From NCBI GenBank assembly GCA_022450595.1, contig JAKUPT010000003.1:18339-82338 (forward strand): 64,000 nucleotides of DNA. The letters run 5' to 3'. Positions 2,838 to 63,903 of this stretch are shown here, piece by piece. Every line of letters begins with the position of its first letter. The first letter of the stretch is position 1. A program made the position numbers and the translations under genes. Under the pieces are notes generated by a model, which saw nothing but the letters and a program-made list of their open reading frames with translations, was not told the origin of the DNA and did not search any database. This stretch comes from Bdellovibrionales bacterium (lineage in GTDB: Bacteria; Bdellovibrionota; Bdellovibrionia; Bdellovibrionales; UBA1609).

Positions 2838-3482
2838 TTACTTTAAATTATCGTAACGCTCATAAAGAGCTTCAGCAGTTTTGTGCTCTTTTTTCCATTT
2901 TTCAGCTTGCTCTTTATATGAAGAGGTCTTTTTGTCCCATTCTTGCTTTTCTTTTTGTATTTGAGTGATTTTTTGATCGATTGTTTTATAAAGCTCATCT
3001 AAGTTTTTCATTTGATTAGCCCATTCCTGCTTTTCTTTCTCAATCTCATTGAGCTTTTTATCATAAGCCGCAATGTTCATTTCACGCTTTTTCTTGTTAT
3101 TTTCTAGCTGAAATAAAACATCTTTGAGTTTTTTAATTTCAGCTAAATCACTATTAAGTTTTTCTTGCTCATTTTTTTTATACTCAACAATTTTTAGGCG
3201 CATTTTTTCAATGGCCTCTTTGTTCTTATCAACATTTTGACTACTTTTACCAAGGTCTTTTTTCTGTTGTTTTAAGTTATCTATAGCCTTAGATGTTTGC
3301 TCTTTGTTGTCTTTTGCTATATCCAGATTTTTTTTATATTCATTATAGTTATGTAAGCTGTTATCAACATTTGTTTTTAACTGCTCCATATCTACATCAA
3401 TTTTTACTTCTTTTGCATTTAACTGCAAACAAGCAAAAACAATCGTAAGTGTGTAAATTATTAATTTCATTTTATCCCCCAT
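2838..3482 (-). CDS. Secreted coiled-coil protein, last gene of the Glt-like operon
   Basis: Signal peptide, then a Lys/Glu/Gln-rich heptad-like sequence throughout. Its start overlaps the upstream stop by 1 nt. Confidence 0.75.
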   Translation of the reverse strand: MGDKMKLIIYTLTIVFACLQLNAKEVKIDVDMEQLKTNVDNSLHNYNEYKKNLDIAKDNKEQTSKAIDNLKQQKKDLGKSSQNVDKNKEAIEKMRLKIVEYKKNEQEKLNSDLAEIKKLKDVLFQLENNKKKREMNIAAYDKKLNEIEKEKQEWANQMKNLDELYKTIDQKITQIQKEKQEWDKKTSSYKEQAEKWKKEHKTAEALYERYDNLK

Positions 3483-14394: not shown

Positions 14395-15270
14395 TTATGC
14401 GGCGTCCTCGCCAGTTTCTGCATATTCTTTCAGTCGCCCTTGAGCATCTTCACTAATATTTGTGAACTTCACTCCATAGAGAACTGAAGAGTTTTTTTCT
14501 TTCACATTTTCATCATATTTTTTACTGACCACTTCACATACGGCATTAAATGGAGGAACTCCATCGCCAGGCTTAAAGTGCAAATACAGTTTTTGCCCAG
14601 GAACAATCATGGCATTATCCATAATAATCCCAGCACCACCTTGAGATATTTCAACGCTTTTACCCTTCCATACAGATTGATTATCATGCACTAAAATGGT
14701 GGCTCCATATCTCACACGTCTATGTCTTCTTCTAAAAAAGATCTCTTGAATTTCTGGCATGAGGGTTTCTTGAAGCTTTTTGATGTTTTCAAATTGAAAG
14801 GCTGTCATATCAGCGATACGCACCCAGGCCTTCATTCCCTTTTTCCACACATAATCAAACTCAAATATAAGTTTTTGCTGAAGCATTTTAATCACATCAG
14901 TAAATGCAAACGGACCAAATTTGTTTTCACCCTTAAGGATGTACCATTCGGCCATTATGTTTTGTTGGTTTTCTTGAGTGCTAGTCACTTCACGGGCTTT
15001 TTTCTCAGCTTGCAGGAAAGCAACATTTTGCGCCGAGGTTTCATGAAGTTCATTGGACTCTTGTTGCTTAGGAGGCGCTTTAGGTTTTGCCTCTTTAATA
15101 TGTTGTAACAACTCTTGATGCTCAACAAAACCCACCCAGTCTTGTTTCGCCTCATCATACAAATAGTCCATAATGGTTAACGCGCCCTGATTGACCTTAG
15201 ACACAATCTCTTCAAAGCTGTAGGGGCCTAATTGTTCACCATTATGTGAGACATAAAATTTTTGACTCAT
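14395..15270 (-). CDS. Cytoplasmic GYF_2-GYF_2-PilZ protein (putative c-di-GMP receptor), first gene of the gliding operon
   Basis: Two GYF_2/DUF4339-like repeats (FYVSHNGEQLGPYSFEEIV...DWVGF and WYILKGENKFGPFAFTDVI...AWVRI). The C-terminal PilZ motifs are RRRHRRVR and EISQGGAG. The stop lies 38 nt upstream of the MotA-like gene. Confidence 0.85.
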   Translation of the reverse strand: MSQKFYVSHNGEQLGPYSFEEIVSKVNQGALTIMDYLYDEAKQDWVGFVEHQELLQHIKEAKPKAPPKQQESNELHETSAQNVAFLQAEKKAREVTSTQENQQNIMAEWYILKGENKFGPFAFTDVIKMLQQKLIFEFDYVWKKGMKAWVRIADMTAFQFENIKKLQETLMPEIQEIFFRRRHRRVRYGATILVHDNQSVWKGKSVEISQGGAGIIMDNAMIVPGQKLYLHFKPGDGVPPFNAVCEVVSKKYDENVKEKNSSVLYGVKFTNISEDAQGRLKEYAETGEDAA

Positions 15271-15490
15271 TTGCTTCCCCTTTAAGTTTTCAAAACCTTT
15301 TAATAACGGTTTACAAAGGCATCTTCGGCTTTTTTTATGAACGACTTTAAATATTGAGAAATATTAAGCTATTTAGACATTTGTCGGGGGGATTTTAGTC
15401 TTTTTTGTATAACTCTTTTACATGGACTTTTTAAAGTTAAATTTTTTGACCAACTTATGAACAAGTTCTTTGTGCTTGTGTCCTGGCCTT

Positions 15491-15618
15491 GAATCTAGCT
15501 CAAAGATTTAAATATATATGTCTTTCTGGACACGGCCTCCATGCCTCGCAGCTCGCGGTCCGTCCTGGACCGCTGAGATCCAGAAAGACATATATATTTA
15601 AATCTTTGAACTAGATTC
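15491..15618. repeat. Long hairpin, copy 1: 40-bp AT-rich arms (39/40 complementary) around a 48-nt loop carrying the 47-nt GC-rich core (15531-15577, forward orientation)
   Basis: Left arm GAATCTAGCTCAAAGATTTAAATATATATGTCTTTCTGGA (15491-15530). The right arm (15579-15618) is its reverse complement with one mismatch. Core: CACGGCCTCCATGCCTCGCAGCTCGCGGTCCGTCCTGGACCGCTGAG. Confidence 0.95.
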
Positions 15619-15840
15619 ACTTGCTAACCAGATGGGTGTGATTTGTGAATGGATAGGAAAACTAAACATTAGAAACAATTAATTATTAGAAAATTAAGCT
15701 CTCACTTTTTAAAGTAAATGGGTTTTATATATTTTTTTTATCGATACCAATTTTTTAATTTCAATTTGCGATTGTTTGTACAAATAGACTTTTACAATCT
15801 GAAAATAATTTTCCCAGGACACCATCATCGCATTTTTAAG

Positions 15841-15976
15841 TTTTCTTTTTATTTCAGCTTTTTACAAAACAGTCTTATGAAAGACCTCAGCGGTCCAGGA
15901 CGGACCGCGAGCTGCGAGGCATGGAGGCCGTGTCTTGAATAAGACTGTTTTGTAAAAAGCTGAAATAAAAAGAAAA
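15841..15976. repeat. Long hairpin, copy 2: perfect 38-bp AT-rich arms around a 60-nt loop carrying the same core in reverse orientation (15886-15932)
   Basis: Left arm TTTTCTTTTTATTTCAGCTTTTTACAAAACAGTCTTAT (15841-15878). The right arm (15939-15976) is its exact reverse complement. The reverse complement of the core is 47/47 identical to copy 1. Confidence 0.95.
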
Positions 15977-15994
15977 CCTACCACGAACCCACAA

Positions 15995-16025
15995 ATAAAA
16001 AAGGCCCCAGTAAAAACTGAGGCCT
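15995..16025 (-). terminator. Rho-independent terminator of the phn-like operon
   Basis: Minus strand reads AGGCCTCAG-TTTTTA-CTGGGGCCT followed by TTTTTAT, 27 nt downstream of the permease stop. Confidence 0.7.
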
Positions 16026-49097: not shown

Positions 49098-50168
49098 ATG
49101 AAACCAATATTGATTATTTTTAGTATTATCACTTTTCATCTTCCACTTAAAGCCCAAGAGGTGCGTGAGTTCTACAATGGCGTCAGGTCACTCGGAATGG
49201 GAGGGGCCACCATTGCAGTCACCAACGATGAAACTGCACTGTTAAATAACCCTGCCGGCCTTGGTAAGTTACGTGATTACTTTTTCACAGTGGCAGACCC
49301 TGAGCTTGATTTGAGTGAACGCAACTACCCAATACACGGCTTAGATCTCATGGGAATGATTGATCCCGATGCCACATTGGGAGAGTTAAGATCTCGCCCC
49401 GGCGCCTCTGTTTACTCTAAAGCACAAATATTTCCCTCTATTGTTCTTCCAAATTTTGGAATGGGATTGTTTACAAAGTATGAAATGTTCGCCCAAGTGG
49501 CCAGCGACAGTAGCACGTACAAAGTTAACTACCAAAATGACATGGCTTTTGTTTTTGGTTTTAACTTTAGACTTTTTGATGGACGTTTAAAATTAGGGTT
49601 TAATACCAAGCTTATCAACCGTGTGGAAATCCTTAGAGATGACTTAGACCCAACAGCTTCTACCAATACAGTATCAAACCTTGGTAAACACGGCTTTGGT
49701 GTAGGCTCAGATGTTGGAATGATTCTTACGGCGCCATGGAAGTATTTACCCACTCTTGCCATTCGTGCCCGTGATGTTGGAAATACAAAATTTGATTTTA
49801 AAGACGGACTCTTTAAAACCACTGCTGAGTACCCGGAAGTGGACACTCAAAAAGTAGATGCCGCTTTTGCTTTGTTTCCAATTCTTGGAAGAGGCAAGCG
49901 CATGGTTTTTACTTTAGAAGTACGTGATGTTTTAAATATGAGCGATTATGAAGATCAAAATAAACTTTACCACGGTGGAGTAGAATTTAACTTTCATGAC
50001 GCCTTCTTTTTTAGAGCCGGTTACAACCAACGCTACTGGACCTCTGGTGTAGAGCTAGCTGTAATGAACTATCAACTCCAACTGGCCACCTACGGCGAAG
50101 AGATCGGCACCGCCACCCAACCCCAAGAAGATCGCCGCTACGTCTTAAAATTCGCCTACCGCTTCTAA
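49098..50168 (+). CDS. FadL/TodX/PorV-like outer-membrane barrel, paralog 2
   Basis: RSLGMGGATIAVTNDETALLNNPAGL near the N-terminus and C-terminal EDRRYVLKFAYRF. Confidence 0.78.
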   Translation: MKPILIIFSIITFHLPLKAQEVREFYNGVRSLGMGGATIAVTNDETALLNNPAGLGKLRDYFFTVADPELDLSERNYPIHGLDLMGMIDPDATLGELRSRPGASVYSKAQIFPSIVLPNFGMGLFTKYEMFAQVASDSSTYKVNYQNDMAFVFGFNFRLFDGRLKLGFNTKLINRVEILRDDLDPTASTNTVSNLGKHGFGVGSDVGMILTAPWKYLPTLAIRARDVGNTKFDFKDGLFKTTAEYPEVDTQKVDAAFALFPILGRGKRMVFTLEVRDVLNMSDYEDQNKLYHGGVEFNFHDAFFFRAGYNQRYWTSGVELAVMNYQLQLATYGEEIGTATQPQEDRRYVLKFAYRF

Positions 50169-50175
50169 CCCGCGT

Positions 50176-50230
50176 CAAAAGGTACGGACTACCTTTTGGA
50201 ACCTCGCGCGAAAAGGTAGTCCGTACCTTT
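50176..50230. repeat. Perfect 21-bp inverted repeat (hairpin) with a 13-nt GC-rich loop
   Basis: AAAAGGTACGGACTACCTTTT (50176-50196), loop GGAACCTCGCGCG, then AAAAGGTAGTCCGTACCTTTT (50210-50230). CCTTTTGGAAC occurs twice as a direct repeat. Confidence 0.9.
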
Positions 50231-50242
50231 TGGAACACAGTA

Positions 50243-57299: not shown

Positions 57300-59078
57300 A
57301 TGGAAAACACAATTTGTTCTAATTTTTTAAATAGAAGAAACCAACACTCAACAGCCTATGCCTTTAAAGCACAAAAAAAATGGCAAAAAGTGAGTTGGAG
57401 TGATTTATTCAAAAGTACAGAACTTATTGCCTGTGGATTAAAAAAATTAGGACTCAAAGAACAGGATAAGGTTATTATTTTGTCCGACACCCGGCCAGAA
57501 TGGTTAATTACAGACATGGCCATTATGGGATTAAAGGCGGTTACAGTCCCCGTTTATCAGAGCAGTCGGCATGAAGATCTGGAGTACATTGCCAACCATT
57601 CAGAGGCTTGTTTTCTCTTTTGTGAAAATAAAAAACAATACAAAAAATGGCAAAAGGTTTCTAAAAACTGCCCTACCGTAAAACAAGTTGTAGTGTTTGA
57701 CTCTAGAAACATAGAAGCTGCAGACAATGTGGTCTGCTACCATGAGCTTCAAAACATCGGACAAGACTACTTTCAAGATCATCCCAATGAATTTCATCAA
57801 AGCTGTAACCAAGTAAAACTAAAAGACCCAGCCAGCATCATCTACACTTCTGGCACAACCGGTCTCCCTAAAGGAGTGCTTCTCACTCATGAACAGTTTA
57901 TGAACGAAATGCAAACCACCTTTGGAGAGTTTGAGGTTGGGAGCCAGGACCGCTCTTTGATCTTTCTCCCCATGGCTCATGTGTTAGGACGAGTGGAAGC
58001 TCTAGGGGCTATATATACTGGGTTTAGTTTGTACTTTGCCACGAGCATTGAGAGAATTCCTGAGAATTTATTGGAAGTTAAACCCACAGTTATGGTGGCC
58101 GTACCTAGAATTTTTGAAAAAATTTATCAAAAAATGCAGTCAAAGCTTGCAAGCAATTCAGCATTAAAGCTGATGTTTAAACAGGCTAAATCCACAGCCT
58201 ACAGTTGGTCAAAAGCCAAAATGAATAATAAGCCTGTAGATGCAAAAACAAAAATCATGTACAAAGTTTTTTACCAAATGATATTTAAAAAAGTGAACAA
58301 AGCTTTTGGTGGTAATATTCGTTTTGTGATTTCAGGTGGAGCTCCCTTTTCTGAGGAGCTCGGTTATTTCTTTTTGGCCTGTAAAATTTTAGTTCTTGAA
58401 GGCTATGGGCTCACGGAAACCACAGCGGGAGTCTGTGTGAATCGACCAGAGGACTTTCGCTTTGGCTCTGTGGGAAAACCCATCACCAATGCTATATTTA
58501 AAATTGCCGATGATGGTGAAATATTAATTAAATCTAAAAATGTGATGAAAGAGTATTATAAAAACCCTGAAGAGACTCAAAAAGCCTTTCAGGGAGATTT
58601 TTTTTGCACCGGAGACATCGGGCACCTAGATGACCAAGGCTACCTAGTGATTACTGACAGAAAAAAAGACTTAATAAAAACATCTGGTGGTAAATATGTG
58701 GCCCCCCAAAAACTTGAAAATCTATTAAAACTGAGTCCTTATATTTCACAAGTGCATGTTTACGGAGACAAGCAAAAGTATATTGTTTGCCTTGTCACAC
58801 TTAATGAAGACAACGTGCTTCAGTTTGCAAAAAGCATTGGACTCAACACTCATGAGCTTGAAGAGCTTAAACAACACAGTGAAATAAAAAAACTCATTAA
58901 CTCTGAAATCAAAGCAGTAAATAAGAAACTTGCCAGCTATGAGACAATTAAAAGACACTCTATTTTAGCAAAAGACTTCACAGTGGAGTCCGGTGAACTT
59001 ACACCTAGTTTAAAAATTAAAAGAAAAGTCATTAACGAAAAGTACAAAGAGGAGCTTCATAAGCTCTATGCCAGTTAA
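57300..59078 (+). CDS. Long-chain acyl-CoA synthetase (AMP-forming)
   Basis: AMP-binding motif IYTSGTTGLPKGV, then YGLTET, GDIG and KDLIKTSGGKY. Confidence 0.9.
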   Translation: MENTICSNFLNRRNQHSTAYAFKAQKKWQKVSWSDLFKSTELIACGLKKLGLKEQDKVIILSDTRPEWLITDMAIMGLKAVTVPVYQSSRHEDLEYIANHSEACFLFCENKKQYKKWQKVSKNCPTVKQVVVFDSRNIEAADNVVCYHELQNIGQDYFQDHPNEFHQSCNQVKLKDPASIIYTSGTTGLPKGVLLTHEQFMNEMQTTFGEFEVGSQDRSLIFLPMAHVLGRVEALGAIYTGFSLYFATSIERIPENLLEVKPTVMVAVPRIFEKIYQKMQSKLASNSALKLMFKQAKSTAYSWSKAKMNNKPVDAKTKIMYKVFYQMIFKKVNKAFGGNIRFVISGGAPFSEELGYFFLACKILVLEGYGLTETTAGVCVNRPEDFRFGSVGKPITNAIFKIADDGEILIKSKNVMKEYYKNPEETQKAFQGDFFCTGDIGHLDDQGYLVITDRKKDLIKTSGGKYVAPQKLENLLKLSPYISQVHVYGDKQKYIVCLVTLNEDNVLQFAKSIGLNTHELEELKQHSEIKKLINSEIKAVNKKLASYETIKRHSILAKDFTVESGELTPSLKIKRKVINEKYKEELHKLYAS

Positions 59079-59842
59079 GGCCTGGACATATAAAATCTAA
59101 AAGCAATACCTAAAAATAAACTGCTCATATCTAAAGTTCTGTCTGTGCCATCATTAAACTTTGCACGAGCGCCCTTGGTGGTGCTGCCTTGAAAACTCGT
59201 CACCGCCGTATCATATTCTAAACTGTCAAATTCCATCACTCTATAACCCAAATTGTATAAAAAGGTTACGTTGTCAGTAAAATGCATCTCTTGGCCAAAA
59301 TGTATTGAGTAGGAAATGGTAGAACCGCCAGTTTCATCTATATAATTAGACACTGGTGAATAGGCCGTTGTTCCCGCCGAGGTGAGTTCATAGGTGTTAT
59401 CAACGTCCACTTCAGCTAAGCCAATCCCAAACCCTATAAAGCTTCTAGATTGTGGGCCTTGCATCAAATCCACCTCAACCACCATATTAGGATTGAACAC
59501 AAACACTTTGCTATCAAGCTTCATTAACTCAGCACCTGAAGAGTTCTTACCCGAGACATCTGTTAGAGAGTTTGTTTGTAAAATCTCGGCTCCAAATTTA
59601 AAGGTCACCGTTCGAATTTTTAATGAAGCTCCCAACTCAAAACTTTGATTGTAAGTCACGCCCTCAGAAAAACTAGTGGTTTGACTGCCACTGCTATTTT
59701 TAAAAGCGCCTTGATATAGATCTGAATAGCCAGCACTTCCGCCAAAAAATACCGACAGACTTTCATCGCCAAAATCGAAAACACGAGCATTGGCTGACAA
59801 AGCAGAACTTAAAACTAAAATTGCAGATAAAATTTTAAACAT
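59075..59842 (-). CDS. Outer-membrane beta-barrel protein
   Basis: Signal peptide ...SANA, strand pattern, and a C-terminal GIAFRFY. Confidence 0.72.
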   Translation of the reverse strand: MFKILSAILVLSSALSANARVFDFGDESLSVFFGGSAGYSDLYQGAFKNSSGSQTTSFSEGVTYNQSFELGASLKIRTVTFKFGAEILQTNSLTDVSGKNSSGAELMKLDSKVFVFNPNMVVEVDLMQGPQSRSFIGFGIGLAEVDVDNTYELTSAGTTAYSPVSNYIDETGGSTISYSIHFGQEMHFTDNVTFLYNLGYRVMEFDSLEYDTAVTSFQGSTTKGARAKFNDGTDRTLDMSSLFLGIAFRFYMSRP

Positions 59843-59926
59843 AAATATATTGTAACTAAGAGTTTTGGGTTTTTATCTTTGAAGCTTTTTTTTTGGACCA
59901 AAGCTTGGGTTTTTTGTAGAAAACCC

Positions 59927-60037
59927 GCAATTTTAGAGTTTAGAGTGTCGATTCAGACACGGCCTCCTTGCCTCGCTGCTCTACGGTCCGTCCTGGACCG
60001 CAGAGGTCTTCATCGACACTCTAAACTCTAAAATTGC
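59927..60037. repeat. Long hairpin, copy 3: perfect 26-bp arms around a 59-nt loop carrying a diverged core (59958-60005, forward orientation)
   Basis: Left arm GCAATTTTAGAGTTTAGAGTGTCGAT (59927-59952). The right arm (60012-60037) is its exact reverse complement. The core CACGGCCTCCTTGCCTCGCTGCTCTACGGTCCGTCCTGGACCGCAGAG matches copy 1 in 43 of 48 aligned columns. Confidence 0.95.
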
Positions 60038-60392
60038 TGGTATTCATGTGAGACAAAAATAAGAGGTAAGAGCTTGTTTTTAATTTTTGTTTTTATGGTT
60101 TAGCTCATTTTTCTAATTAAAATACTGAAGGCATTTAGATCATTTCAGCAGGGACGGACACCTGCTAGCTATGGGAAAAAAGAGACTCAACTCTTCCCCT
60201 TCCCCCTAAAGAAATTTGAAAAAATTAGAGTGACGGACTCTGGTTTATGGTGAGTAAAGCCACTATTTGAAGGCTTTAGCTCTTAGTCTTTGAAGAAATT
60301 ATAATATATGTAAGTGATTGTCAGATTTTTTTGCATAGCGCGTTATTCTAAGCTATAAATGCAGCGCATAAAACATATAGGGAGTTTATTCT

Positions 60393-63018: not shown

Positions 63019-63903
63019 ATGCATAAAAAGTCCACGTTATTAAAAAAGCCCATCAAAAAAGTCGCTGTTGTTTACAGACCTGGTAGAAAAGCCACCTCTA
63101 AAATTGCCAGCGAGGTGGCCGAATGGCTTATGGAGAGAAAGATCAAAGTCTATTCTCATCCTAAACGAAAATTTAAAGTAAACTCCAAACAGATTCCTGT
63201 TTGTAACAAACCCAAAGAGCTCGACTTAATTGTTGTGCTTGGAGGGGATGGAACATACTTAGAAGCTGTAAGACTCATTGAGGGCTCCAAGGTTCCTATC
63301 CTTGGAATCAACATGGGCTCATTAGGGTTTTTAACTGAAAACCGTTTAGAAAACCTGTACCCATCACTTGAGATGACTCTCAATGGAAAGATGGAGGCCT
63401 GCCCTCGTTCCATGTTAAAAGTAAAAGTTAAAAATGGGAAAAGTAGTAAAGAGTTTTTAGCTTTAAATGATGTGGTGATTGAAAGAGGGGCTCGCAGTCA
63501 CCTGATAGACCTTGAAGTGTTTAGTGAAAAAAACTTTGTGTGCAACGTAAAGTCCGATGGTTTGATTATTTCAAGCCCCACCGGATCAACGGCTTACAAC
63601 TTAGCAGCCGGAGGACCGATACTGCATCCCGAGGTCGACGCCGTGGTAGTGACCCCCATCTGCCCACACAGTTTAACCAATAGACCTTTAATTTTTCCAG
63701 ATGACAGACTGCTTTGTTTCCAGTTAAAACCAGGCAAACAAACAGCAAGCCTTACTATTGATGGATTAAATTGCGGCGAAATTAATGATAAAAAACATGT
63801 CAGCATTGAACGAGCAAAACAAGATCATTACGTTTTAAAAAAACCGTCTCACAATTATTTTACACTCCTCACAGAGAAACTCCGTTTTGGAGAAAGGGAC
63901 TAA
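63019..63903 (+). CDS. nadK: NAD kinase
   Basis: GGDGTYL motif, NMGSLGFL and SPTGSTAYNLAAGGP blocks. Confidence 0.92.
   Translation: MHKKSTLLKKPIKKVAVVYRPGRKATSKIASEVAEWLMERKIKVYSHPKRKFKVNSKQIPVCNKPKELDLIVVLGGDGTYLEAVRLIEGSKVPILGINMGSLGFLTENRLENLYPSLEMTLNGKMEACPRSMLKVKVKNGKSSKEFLALNDVVIERGARSHLIDLEVFSEKNFVCNVKSDGLIISSPTGSTAYNLAAGGPILHPEVDAVVVTPICPHSLTNRPLIFPDDRLLCFQLKPGKQTASLTIDGLNCGEINDKKHVSIERAKQDHYVLKKPSHNYFTLLTEKLRFGERD

Follow-up and report, generated by a model that had tools for sequence, protein, structure and literature searches.

The A(N)GGA sequence is the type of site to which Csr/Rsm proteins (CsrA) bind. In palindromic repeats such as REP/REPIN, Correia, RPE and MITEs, the palindromic arms are conserved and the loop is variable. 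TwoAYGGAY, which is RF01731 in Rfam and belongs to the Csr/Rsm clan CL00106, has been an orphan RNA family since 2010 (PMC2864571); a partner has been proposed but is unproven, and the genomic spread of the family is puzzling. The proposed partner is a dimeric Csr/Rsm-like protein (Gardner & Eldai 2015; PMC4333381). One stem of the family contains a tandem G.A, and the outer stem is poorly conserved (PMC4333381). Its doublets are divergent in 68% of cases, with a median gap of 249 bp, and in Pseudomonas short repeat arrays with the motif GMTBT(T) lie upstream (10.64898/2026.09.22.753630).

The window analysed here, a whole stretch of 64,000 nucleotides from a Bdellovibrionales bacterium, holds three intergenic elements that resemble this family in their fold. 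Copies 1 (minus strand) and 2 (plus strand) form a divergent doublet, with 222 bp between the elements, and copy 3 stands alone. The element is probably a structured RNA, a divergent and miniaturised variant of TwoAYGGAY in a marine Bdellovibrionales-like lineage, a reading to which we assign a probability of about 0.6.

Sequence and fold of the three elements

The features of the three copies are as follows.

59927..60037, minus strand (RNA): copy 3, whole element of 111 nt, with a basal stem, a three-way junction and two GGA-loop hairpins
60006..60037, minus strand: copy 3, 5' strand of the basal stem (RNA sense), partner 59927-59958
59927..59958, minus strand: copy 3, 3' strand of the basal stem, partner 60006..60037
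59979..60005, minus strand: copy 3, hairpin 1, CUCUGCGGUCC-AGGAC-GGACCGUAGAG, 11 bp including one G.U, from folding, the Rfam alignment and pair counts
59990-59994, minus strand: copy 3, pentaloop AGGAC of hairpin 1
59961..59972, minus strand: copy 3, hairpin 2, GGC-AAGGAG-GCC, with the loop ANGGAG at 59964-59969
15490..15619, minus strand: copy 1, 42-bp basal stem 15490-15531/15578-15619 and 46-nt core 15532-15577
15840..15977, plus strand: copy 2, 46-position basal stem 15840-15885/15932-15977 with a tandem G.A, and core 15886-15931

On the plus strand, copy 3 reads, in order, GCAATTTTAGAGTTTAGAGTGTCGAT, TCAGAC, the GC-rich core, GTCTTC and ATCGACACTCTAAACTCTAAAATTGC. The preliminary description of this DNA had reported perfect 26-bp arms around a core, and the sequence at 59927-60037 bears this out: the arm GCAATTTTAGAGTTTAGAGTGTCGAT at 59927-59952 is perfectly complementary to 60012-60037 over 26 nt. 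When the AGAC/GTCT closing stem is included, the helix has 32 positions, 30 of which are Watson-Crick pairs, with a tandem G.A/A.G as the sole interruption. The repeat search extends the inverted repeat to 40 nt at 90% complementarity. Since the G+C content of the window is 33-41%, the 47-nt, GC-rich core is a GC island within AT-rich arms. It differs from the cores at 15529-15577 (plus strand) and 15883-15934 (minus strand) by four substitutions and one single-base indel, and realignment gives the same count as that first reported against copy 1. A 17-mer of the core occurs three times in the window and never in 100 shuffles. The three palindromes that carry a core are also the three longest inverted repeats of the whole 64 kb, the next best having arms of 22 nt.

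Identical sequences of copy 3 are present in three other assemblies (ENA ERZ23495652, ENA ERZ27259039 and Logan SRR36300919). Its core is identical (53/53) in seven TARA contigs of a related lineage, where it is located at the orthologous site. Both sets were reached by exact-protein look-ups with the neighbouring OM-barrel gene, which has 92% amino-acid identity in the related TARA Oceans lineage; look-ups of the same kind with the genes at the two ends of the window gave no record. Homologues with about 55% identity carry the name Bdellovibrionales in their source records, and the host is accordingly treated here as a marine Bdellovibrionales-like bacterium. These matches rule out assembly errors as the source of the differences in copy 3. 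The proposal that one core and one palindrome make up the unit also holds, since copy 3 is solitary and is kept so at the orthologous site of the related lineage. A small conserved ORF at 59879..60031 was considered and rejected, its frame not being kept across the copies, and peptides translated from the core in six frames matched no protein at E values up to 10.

On the RNA strand the core has the form CUC(A)GCGGUCC-AGGAC-GGACCGC-GAG CUGCGA GGC-AUGGAG-GCC GU, closed by GAC...GUC. RNAfold gives the same arrangement for all three full elements, with a basal stem, a three-way junction and two hairpins that carry GGA in their loops. The basal helix, which is 32-46 bp long, is AT-rich and almost perfect; in copy 1 it consists of 40 Watson-Crick and two G.U pairs. 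Hairpin 1 has 10-11 bp and the pentaloop AGGAC, and hairpin 2 has a GGC/GCC stem and the hexaloop A-N-GGA-G. The two GGA loops are about 27 nt apart. The tandem G.A/A.G, 4-5 bp below the junction, is found in copies 2 and 3 and in all their alleles, and is absent from copy 1. The short closing stem AGAC/GTCT that had been suggested for copies 2 and 3 is also supported, its GAC/GUC closing pairs being invariant in 9/9 alleles.

Folded individually, each copy forms a stable structure of -76 to -82 kcal/mol. The minimum free energy of copy 3 is -76.1 kcal/mol, compared with -69.6 for its complement (z -12.0), and that of copy 1 is -81.5 kcal/mol, compared with -75.6 (z -15.7). For copy 2 the difference between the strands is marginal (-82.1 and -81.5 kcal/mol). 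Hairpins as stable as these in intergenic DNA might act as bidirectional intrinsic terminators or transcriptional insulators, in which the GC-rich core would merely strengthen the hairpin tip, and the stem of copy 3 is followed on the RNA strand by GGGUUUUC. Such a role is very improbable, because copy 3 is flanked by the starts of two divergent genes and a terminator there would be superfluous, no U-tract accompanies copy 1 or copy 2, and a terminator would not need an asymmetric 46-nt core that is invariant over 28-57% synonymous divergence. A scan reported no terminator-like site at any of the three copies and found only the terminator of phnE itself (16002-16025), which is separate from copy 2.

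Probable relation to the TwoAYGGAY family

At the Rfam gathering thresholds nothing is reported in the window, all three copies (30.4-37.4 bits) lying below the 43 bits that are set for RF01731. The E-values of 2e-4 to 3e-3 given here come from E-value-mode searches of short regions.

59920-60044, minus strand: copy 3, RF01731 match over the full model, 35.3 bits, E 2e-4
15842-15975, plus strand: copy 2, RF01731 match, 37.4 bits, E 2.3e-4
15490-15619, minus strand: copy 1, RF01731 match, 30.4 bits, E 0.0028

All three matches cover the full model and lie on the strand complementary to the core as it was first written, and RF01731 is not listed on the opposite strand of any copy at E values up to 10. 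At every copy, RF01731 leads the second-ranked family by 10-20 bits. In an E-value scan of the whole window, the match of copy 2 is the best among all 4227 families (E 0.027). The Rfam alignments place the AT-rich arms on the long outer stem of the model and the core on its two hairpins, with GGA in both loops. Hairpin 2, however, has only 3 bp here, compared with about 15 in the model. The family is named for the motif AYGGAY, and the loops here read AGGAC and A(U/A/C)GGAG, with GGA in both; the sequence ACGGAC is found directly after the loop, in the 3' strand of hairpin 1. In a relative in which the doublet appears to have collapsed (L185, described below), the loops are AGGAU and the canonical AUGGAU.

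Long hairpins draw spurious sub-threshold matches to covariance models. The palindrome of L185, for example, scores 30-37 bits with plant and animal miRNA families. With a covariance model of our own, copy 3 scores 103.8 bits, and the wrong strand 37-48 bits from the stem alone. Even though the scores are below threshold, homology to TwoAYGGAY is probable, as far as sequence and predicted fold can tell. The preliminary description had missed this relation; the core is better regarded as a probable sub-threshold relative of a described Rfam family than as an unknown class. The results suggest that, in AT-rich genomes, divergent members go unreported at the present Rfam thresholds.

Conservation of the core and compensation in the stems

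The comparison draws on nine distinct alleles at the orthologous sites of marine relatives, of which locus 1 contributes four, locus 2 three and locus 3 two. In all 46+46+47 (139) core nucleotides, the window and TARA type A are the same, while four-fold sites in the flanking genes are 28-41% diverged for loci 1 and 2 and 46-57% diverged for locus 3. Judging from these comparisons, the core is under strong purifying selection. Since the five private differences of copy 3 are kept in both lineages, the identity of the core reflects selection, not homogenisation between the copies.

In the 107-column alignment of the nine alleles, which represents three loci and few independent events, 97.2% of the cells pair, compared with 32-45% in slid controls, and 24 of the 44 pairs have changed on both sides. 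Of the 30 innermost basal-stem pairs counted, 23 have changed in both partners. Covariation scores 0.635, compared with 0.18 in shuffles, and none of 500 shuffles reaches the observed values. The double-sided changes, every one of which leaves a standard pair, are distributed over the loci as follows.

Locus 1, window and allele A: four double-sided substitutions, two paired indels and two U.G-to-C-G changes
Locus 2, window and allele A: two double-sided substitutions
Locus 2, window and allele B: ten double-sided substitutions
Locus 2, alleles A and B: eight double-sided substitutions
Locus 3, copy 3 and its ortholog L117: two double-sided substitutions and paired indels

Changes are found at 6-26% of the stem positions, compared with 28-57% at four-fold sites. 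Since the stems change at less than the synonymous rate, the arms are not hyper-variable, and hyper-mutation of the arms was rejected as an explanation. Within the core, the TARA alleles contain a compensatory series in hairpin 1, G-C to G.A to U-A, in which GCGGUCC/GGACCGC is followed by a form with GGACAGC and then by GCUGUCC/GGACAGC. No double-sided covariation is present in hairpin 2 among the nine alleles, the core varying too little for such a test.

On the RNA strand, the stems of all alleles together comprise 463 Watson-Crick cells, nine G.U cells and no A.C cells. Apart from the G.U cells, only the conserved tandem G.A, a transient G.A and a single A.A depart from Watson-Crick pairing. 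The nine G.U cells correspond to six independent events, for which a strand-symmetric constraint on DNA predicts a 50:50 distribution (p ~0.016). This pattern argues that the object of selection is an RNA on the predicted strand, not a DNA palindrome. Of the RNA or ssDNA structure that was first proposed, the single-strand structure stands, with 97% of the cells paired, but the ssDNA form is disfavoured by the strand-specific G.U pattern. This pattern and the RF01731 matches also point to the reverse complement of the strand on which the core was originally written.

The same evidence bears on a DNA-level palindromic repeat, which could be a mobile element of the REP/REPIN or MITE type, or a cruciform or ssDNA hairpin site for a transposase, nuclease or replication protein. 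The core would then be a protein-binding site, and template switching would have made or corrected the arms, unless these were palindromes already present that served as targets. Several features fit such a repeat: the arms are long, nearly perfect Watson-Crick palindromes with indels mirrored in both arms, the element is present in several copies with an inverted doublet, the collapse of the doublet in L185 would indicate palindrome dynamics at the DNA level, and the TwoAYGGAY family has been called 'mobile-element-like' in the literature. However, the one-sided transitions are 6/6 G.U on one strand, with none A.C, and the core is asymmetric. Variants of the core that are private to a copy have been retained in separate lineages, at fixed orthologous sites, which indicates long residence and not recent mobility. 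The window contains no empty long palindromes, the phage, plasmid and viral collections contain no match to the core, and a search that was not thorough found no association with a transposase. A repeat of this kind is therefore unlikely, and a structured RNA related to TwoAYGGAY is the preferred reading.

The loop of hairpin 2 has one position that varies. The U of AUGGAG, which is A in copy 3, has changed to A a second time, independently, in TARA alleles B and C of locus 1, and the same base is C in allele B of locus 2. The recurrence of U, A and C indicates that this position is free, giving the consensus A-N-GGA-G. The variable base agrees with the A(N)GGA type of Csr/Rsm site, a reading that also leans on PMC4333381.

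The preliminary description had also noted a reciprocal A/T exchange between copy 3 and the other two copies and had suggested covariation of a base pair. On the RNA strand, the helix proposed there would change from CAGC/GCUG in copies 1 and 2 to CUGC/GCAG in copy 3. The two positions do remain paired (AU in seven alleles, UA in two), but the exchange represents one evolutionary event and a rival pairing is equally good. RNAfold and the Rfam alignment give the more stable hairpin 1, with which the proposed helix conflicts. In hairpin 1, copies 1 and 2 carry this A as a bulge. The change from A to U in copy 3 creates a new U-A pair with the inserted A, and an adjacent change from C to U gives a G.U pair, so that the helix becomes an uninterrupted 11 bp. 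Hairpin 1 explains three of the four nearby changes and the proposed helix two of the four; both are compatible with the data. The G-C/G.A/U-A series of the TARA alleles is independent covariation, and it falls in the part of the helix that is common to the two models.

Arms, gene neighbourhood and comparison with known systems

The arms of the different loci are unrelated, as had been claimed: outside the 3-9 nt or so that adjoin the core, they are not significantly similar. The favoured origin is divergence from an ancestral hairpin in which the stem only has to pair, since orthologous stems are seen drifting by compensation, the stem composition matches that of the genome, the outer stem of the family is poorly conserved and empty long palindromes are absent from the window. 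Insertion into existing palindromes, or generation of the arms at insertion, would be possible alternative origins, the first of which was rejected because no empty long palindrome is found within the window. In the relatives that lack the element (L126, L128, L129 and L140), the intergenic DNA is unalignable at the relevant point.

In L185, whose GYF/PilZ protein is 89% identical, the spacer between phnE and the GYF/PilZ gene has one giant imperfect palindrome and no doublet. Two inverted half-cores with one hairpin 1 in common make up this palindrome. Its whole length aligns with the doublet of the window or TARA sequences once the DNA between the hairpin-1 stems is removed, and its AT-rich flanks are not significantly complementary. 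It may be read as an older doublet that collapsed by deletion between the directly repeated halves of the hairpin-1 stems. The doublet would then predate the split from L185, and palindromes at these loci would have been subject to dynamics at the DNA level, a mobile or template-switching component staying a minority hypothesis. In its strongest form, the element would be a self-propagating hairpin, and fold-back synthesis or intrastrand template switching at the GC-rich core would re-template its arms from one another. Such copying would account for the collapse in L185, for indels that are mirrored between the arms, for doublets in inverted orientation and for stems with hardly any mismatch. 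We regard this as decidedly unlikely; if true, it would be an RNA-gene cassette of an undescribed kind that moves or regenerates itself, and in predatory bacteria it might link mobility with Csr-type regulation.

Searches for further copies gave none. A genome scan with the 18-mer CGGTCCGTCCTGGACCGC returned 113 loci, all of them chance matches in high-GC genomes and none with the rest of the core. A metagenome scan with TGCCTCGCN{6,10}GGTCCGTCCTGGACC gave 0 matches, as did the left half of the core in a scan of viral sequences, and the plasmid and phage collections held no meaningful match to the core. Our covariance model (R1) found no new copies in 44 metagenome loci of more distant GYF/PilZ relatives (~470 kb), nor in the four relatives without the element.

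The genes around the three copies differ. The OM-barrel gene (59842..59075) begins 85 nt downstream of copy 3 and the GYF/PilZ gene (15270..14395) 220 nt downstream of copy 1, each in the same orientation as the element, while copy 2 is directed towards phnE, a convergent gene, and faces its 3' end. A scan for sigma-70-like promoters found none near the three copies. In the TARA relatives, the spacer of the doublet holds a tandem array, (AACTACT)x7.9 followed by CTAGTTTT x4.4. Other hairpins with GGA or ACGGAC loops are present in the sense leader of the neighbouring lipoprotein gene and elsewhere, an arrangement that fits, without proving, a regulon of such sites.

The positions of copies 1 and 3 would suggest a leader element, but that of copy 2 would not. 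If the element were a cis-acting leader or attenuator in a 5' untranslated region and not a free sRNA, the hairpin would control read-through, the stability of the mRNA (as an RNase III site) or the translation of the OM-barrel and GYF/PilZ genes. Besides the co-oriented genes 85 and 220 nt downstream, the typing of RF01731 as Cis-reg in Rfam and the similar hairpins in the leader of the lipoprotein gene are in line with this. Copy 2, however, points at the 3' end of phnE and has no gene to regulate, the same core lies upstream of unrelated genes, and the motif was scored as not cis-regulatory by Weinberg et al. 2010 (PMC2864571). An exclusively cis-acting role is rather unlikely, even though it is the least improbable of the alternatives to the structured TwoAYGGAY-like RNA.

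For that RNA, each unit would be the gene for, or a leader segment of, a transcript of ~110-140 nt, read from the minus strand at copies 1 and 3 and from the plus strand at copy 2. The long basal helix, free in sequence, would close on the three-way junction through the invariant GAC/GUC pairs; it would provide stability or a processing site and would only have to stay paired. By analogy, the two GGA loops are putative binding sites for a dimeric RNA-binding protein of the Csr/Rsm type, or a similar one. The RNA might then titrate the protein as a sponge or control the gene downstream; of the possible biological roles, we favour that of a sponge or leader for a Csr/Rsm-type protein. A tblastn search with three CsrA/RsmE sequences found no csrA in ~270 kb (the window and L114-L140, many of them overlapping), which is too little DNA to be informative.

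Like TwoAYGGAY, the elements carry two successive hairpins on one long basal stem, with GGA in the terminal loops, and have an outer stem that is conserved in pairing and not in sequence. Both have a tandem G.A in a stem, perhaps not the same one, and both have several intergenic copies per genome (here three in 64 kb) and divergent doublets about 250 bp apart (222 bp here). Short upstream repeats are found here in relatives only, and their motif (AACTACT) differs from GMTBT(T). The elements are distinguished by their loops, AGGAC (5 nt) and ANGGAG, by a hairpin 2 that is cut to 3 bp, and by an AT-rich basal stem that is unusually long and perfect (32-46 bp). The three extra hairpins and the pseudoknot of the Pseudomonas members are absent. 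The reported hosts of TwoAYGGAY are from the human gut, the Gammaproteobacteria/Pseudomonadota and the Clostridiales/Bacillota, whereas the host here belongs to a marine Bdellovibrionales-like lineage, so that a TwoAYGGAY-like RNA would be extended at the phylum level. The copies here are also old and fixed at orthologous sites, not recently expanded.

The sponge sRNAs of the Csr/Rsm system (CsrB, CsrC and RsmX/Y/Z; CL00106) likewise have GGA in hairpin loops spaced for a dimeric protein, and the loop sequence AAGGAGG/AUGGAGG here resembles a Shine-Dalgarno sequence, as it does in these RNAs. However, each RNA here has two sites, compared with 5-22 in the sponges, which have no equivalent of the long closing helix and are not similar in sequence. 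REP/REPIN-type repeats are also short, intergenic, multi-copy palindromes, often in inverted pairs (REPIN doublets). In the elements described here, in contrast, conservation lies in the core that forms the loop, each locus has arms of its own, the strand-specific G.U pairs point to RNA, and no RAYT or transposase was seen in a limited search.

What selection holds fixed is a compact form of ~50 nt, comprising the two GGA loops, the linker between them and the GAC/GUC closure. The frozen cores, the freely compensating stems and the strand-specific G.U pairs make these loci a clean natural experiment that informs the design of binding and deletion studies. The element most likely extends the known puzzle of TwoAYGGAY, and does not represent a new class of system.

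Small hairpins around copy 3 and elsewhere in the window

The RNA-like element at locus 3 (copy 3) lies between an OM-barrel gene and the Tyr-rich lipoprotein gene, and is not the only compact structure in its neighborhood. Two more small hairpins, which are kept in the orthologous locus (L117), separate it from the OM-barrel start codon and possibly belong to the same leader as copy 3. The motif GACGGAC is found in excess, with six occurrences against 1.1 expected, and it forms part of the loop in small, isolated hairpins.

Hairpin features and GACGGAC sites
Window 59880-59926, minus strand: small hairpins GGGUUUUCUACAAAAAACCC and AAGCUUUGGUCCAAAAAAAAAGCUU, on the OM-barrel side of copy 3
Window 60146-60167: GACGGAC site/hairpin
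Window 60222-60246: GACGGAC site/hairpin
Window 49795-49818: GACGGAC site/hairpin
Window 50176-50232: GACGGAC site/hairpin
L128 (relative without the element), ~1550-1740: GACGGAC site/hairpin
L140 (relative without the element), start of the intergenic region: GACGGAC site/hairpin

The Tyr-rich lipoprotein gene has two GACGGAC-loop hairpins in its sense leader, the ORF at 49098-50168 is followed after its stop codon by an inverted pair of 22-nt hairpins, and L128 has four occurrences of GGGACGGAC in its orthologous intergenic region. All of these may be additional targets of the RNA- or DNA-binding factor proposed for the element.

The NAD-kinase ORF (window 63019-63903) encodes 294 aa, while the gene called at 1627-2301 of the otherwise near-identical ENA contig (L114) encodes 224 aa; the window therefore derives from an assembly or strain that differs slightly. 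No database record exists for the exact product of this ORF.

Forms of the divergent doublet in relatives

In a relative whose GYF/PilZ protein is 89% identical, one structure stands in place of the divergent doublet.

L185 (Logan SRR21824762), 3339-3411: single giant imperfect palindrome

This palindrome (fold z = -11) consists of two inverted half-cores, identical at 28 of 33 positions, with one hairpin 1 common to both, and is equivalent to the window doublet minus all DNA between its two hairpin-1 stems. Its hairpin-2 loop has the canonical form, AUGGAU.

In a 97% relative (L186 1-100; Logan SRR25180566), the contig start falls within element 1, and the 3'-arm region (~40 nt, ...TTCAAAATCTTTTAG.TGG.TTCAAGAC.AGGAA) is present twice in tandem. 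This duplication is genuine or else arose during assembly.

Probable recombination and a repeat array in the TARA relatives

The TARA strains L130 and L131/L134 have identical GYF, ExbB and PhnC coding sequences, with no four-fold differences. Their phnE genes nevertheless show changes at 13% of four-fold sites, and eight paired positions of the locus 2 stem are altered. This pattern indicates a mosaic formed by recombination, with a breakpoint inside or close to the intergenic region. A tandem array lies in the spacer of the divergent doublet in TARA relatives.

L130 9529-9621, also L131, L134 and L137: (AACTACT)x7.9 + CTAGTTTT x4.4

The array, whose length varies or is hidden by scaffold gaps, is absent from the corresponding region of the window (~15620-15840). 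It lies upstream of both predicted RNAs and is reminiscent of the arrays of short repeats that have been reported ahead of TwoAYGGAY in Pseudomonas.
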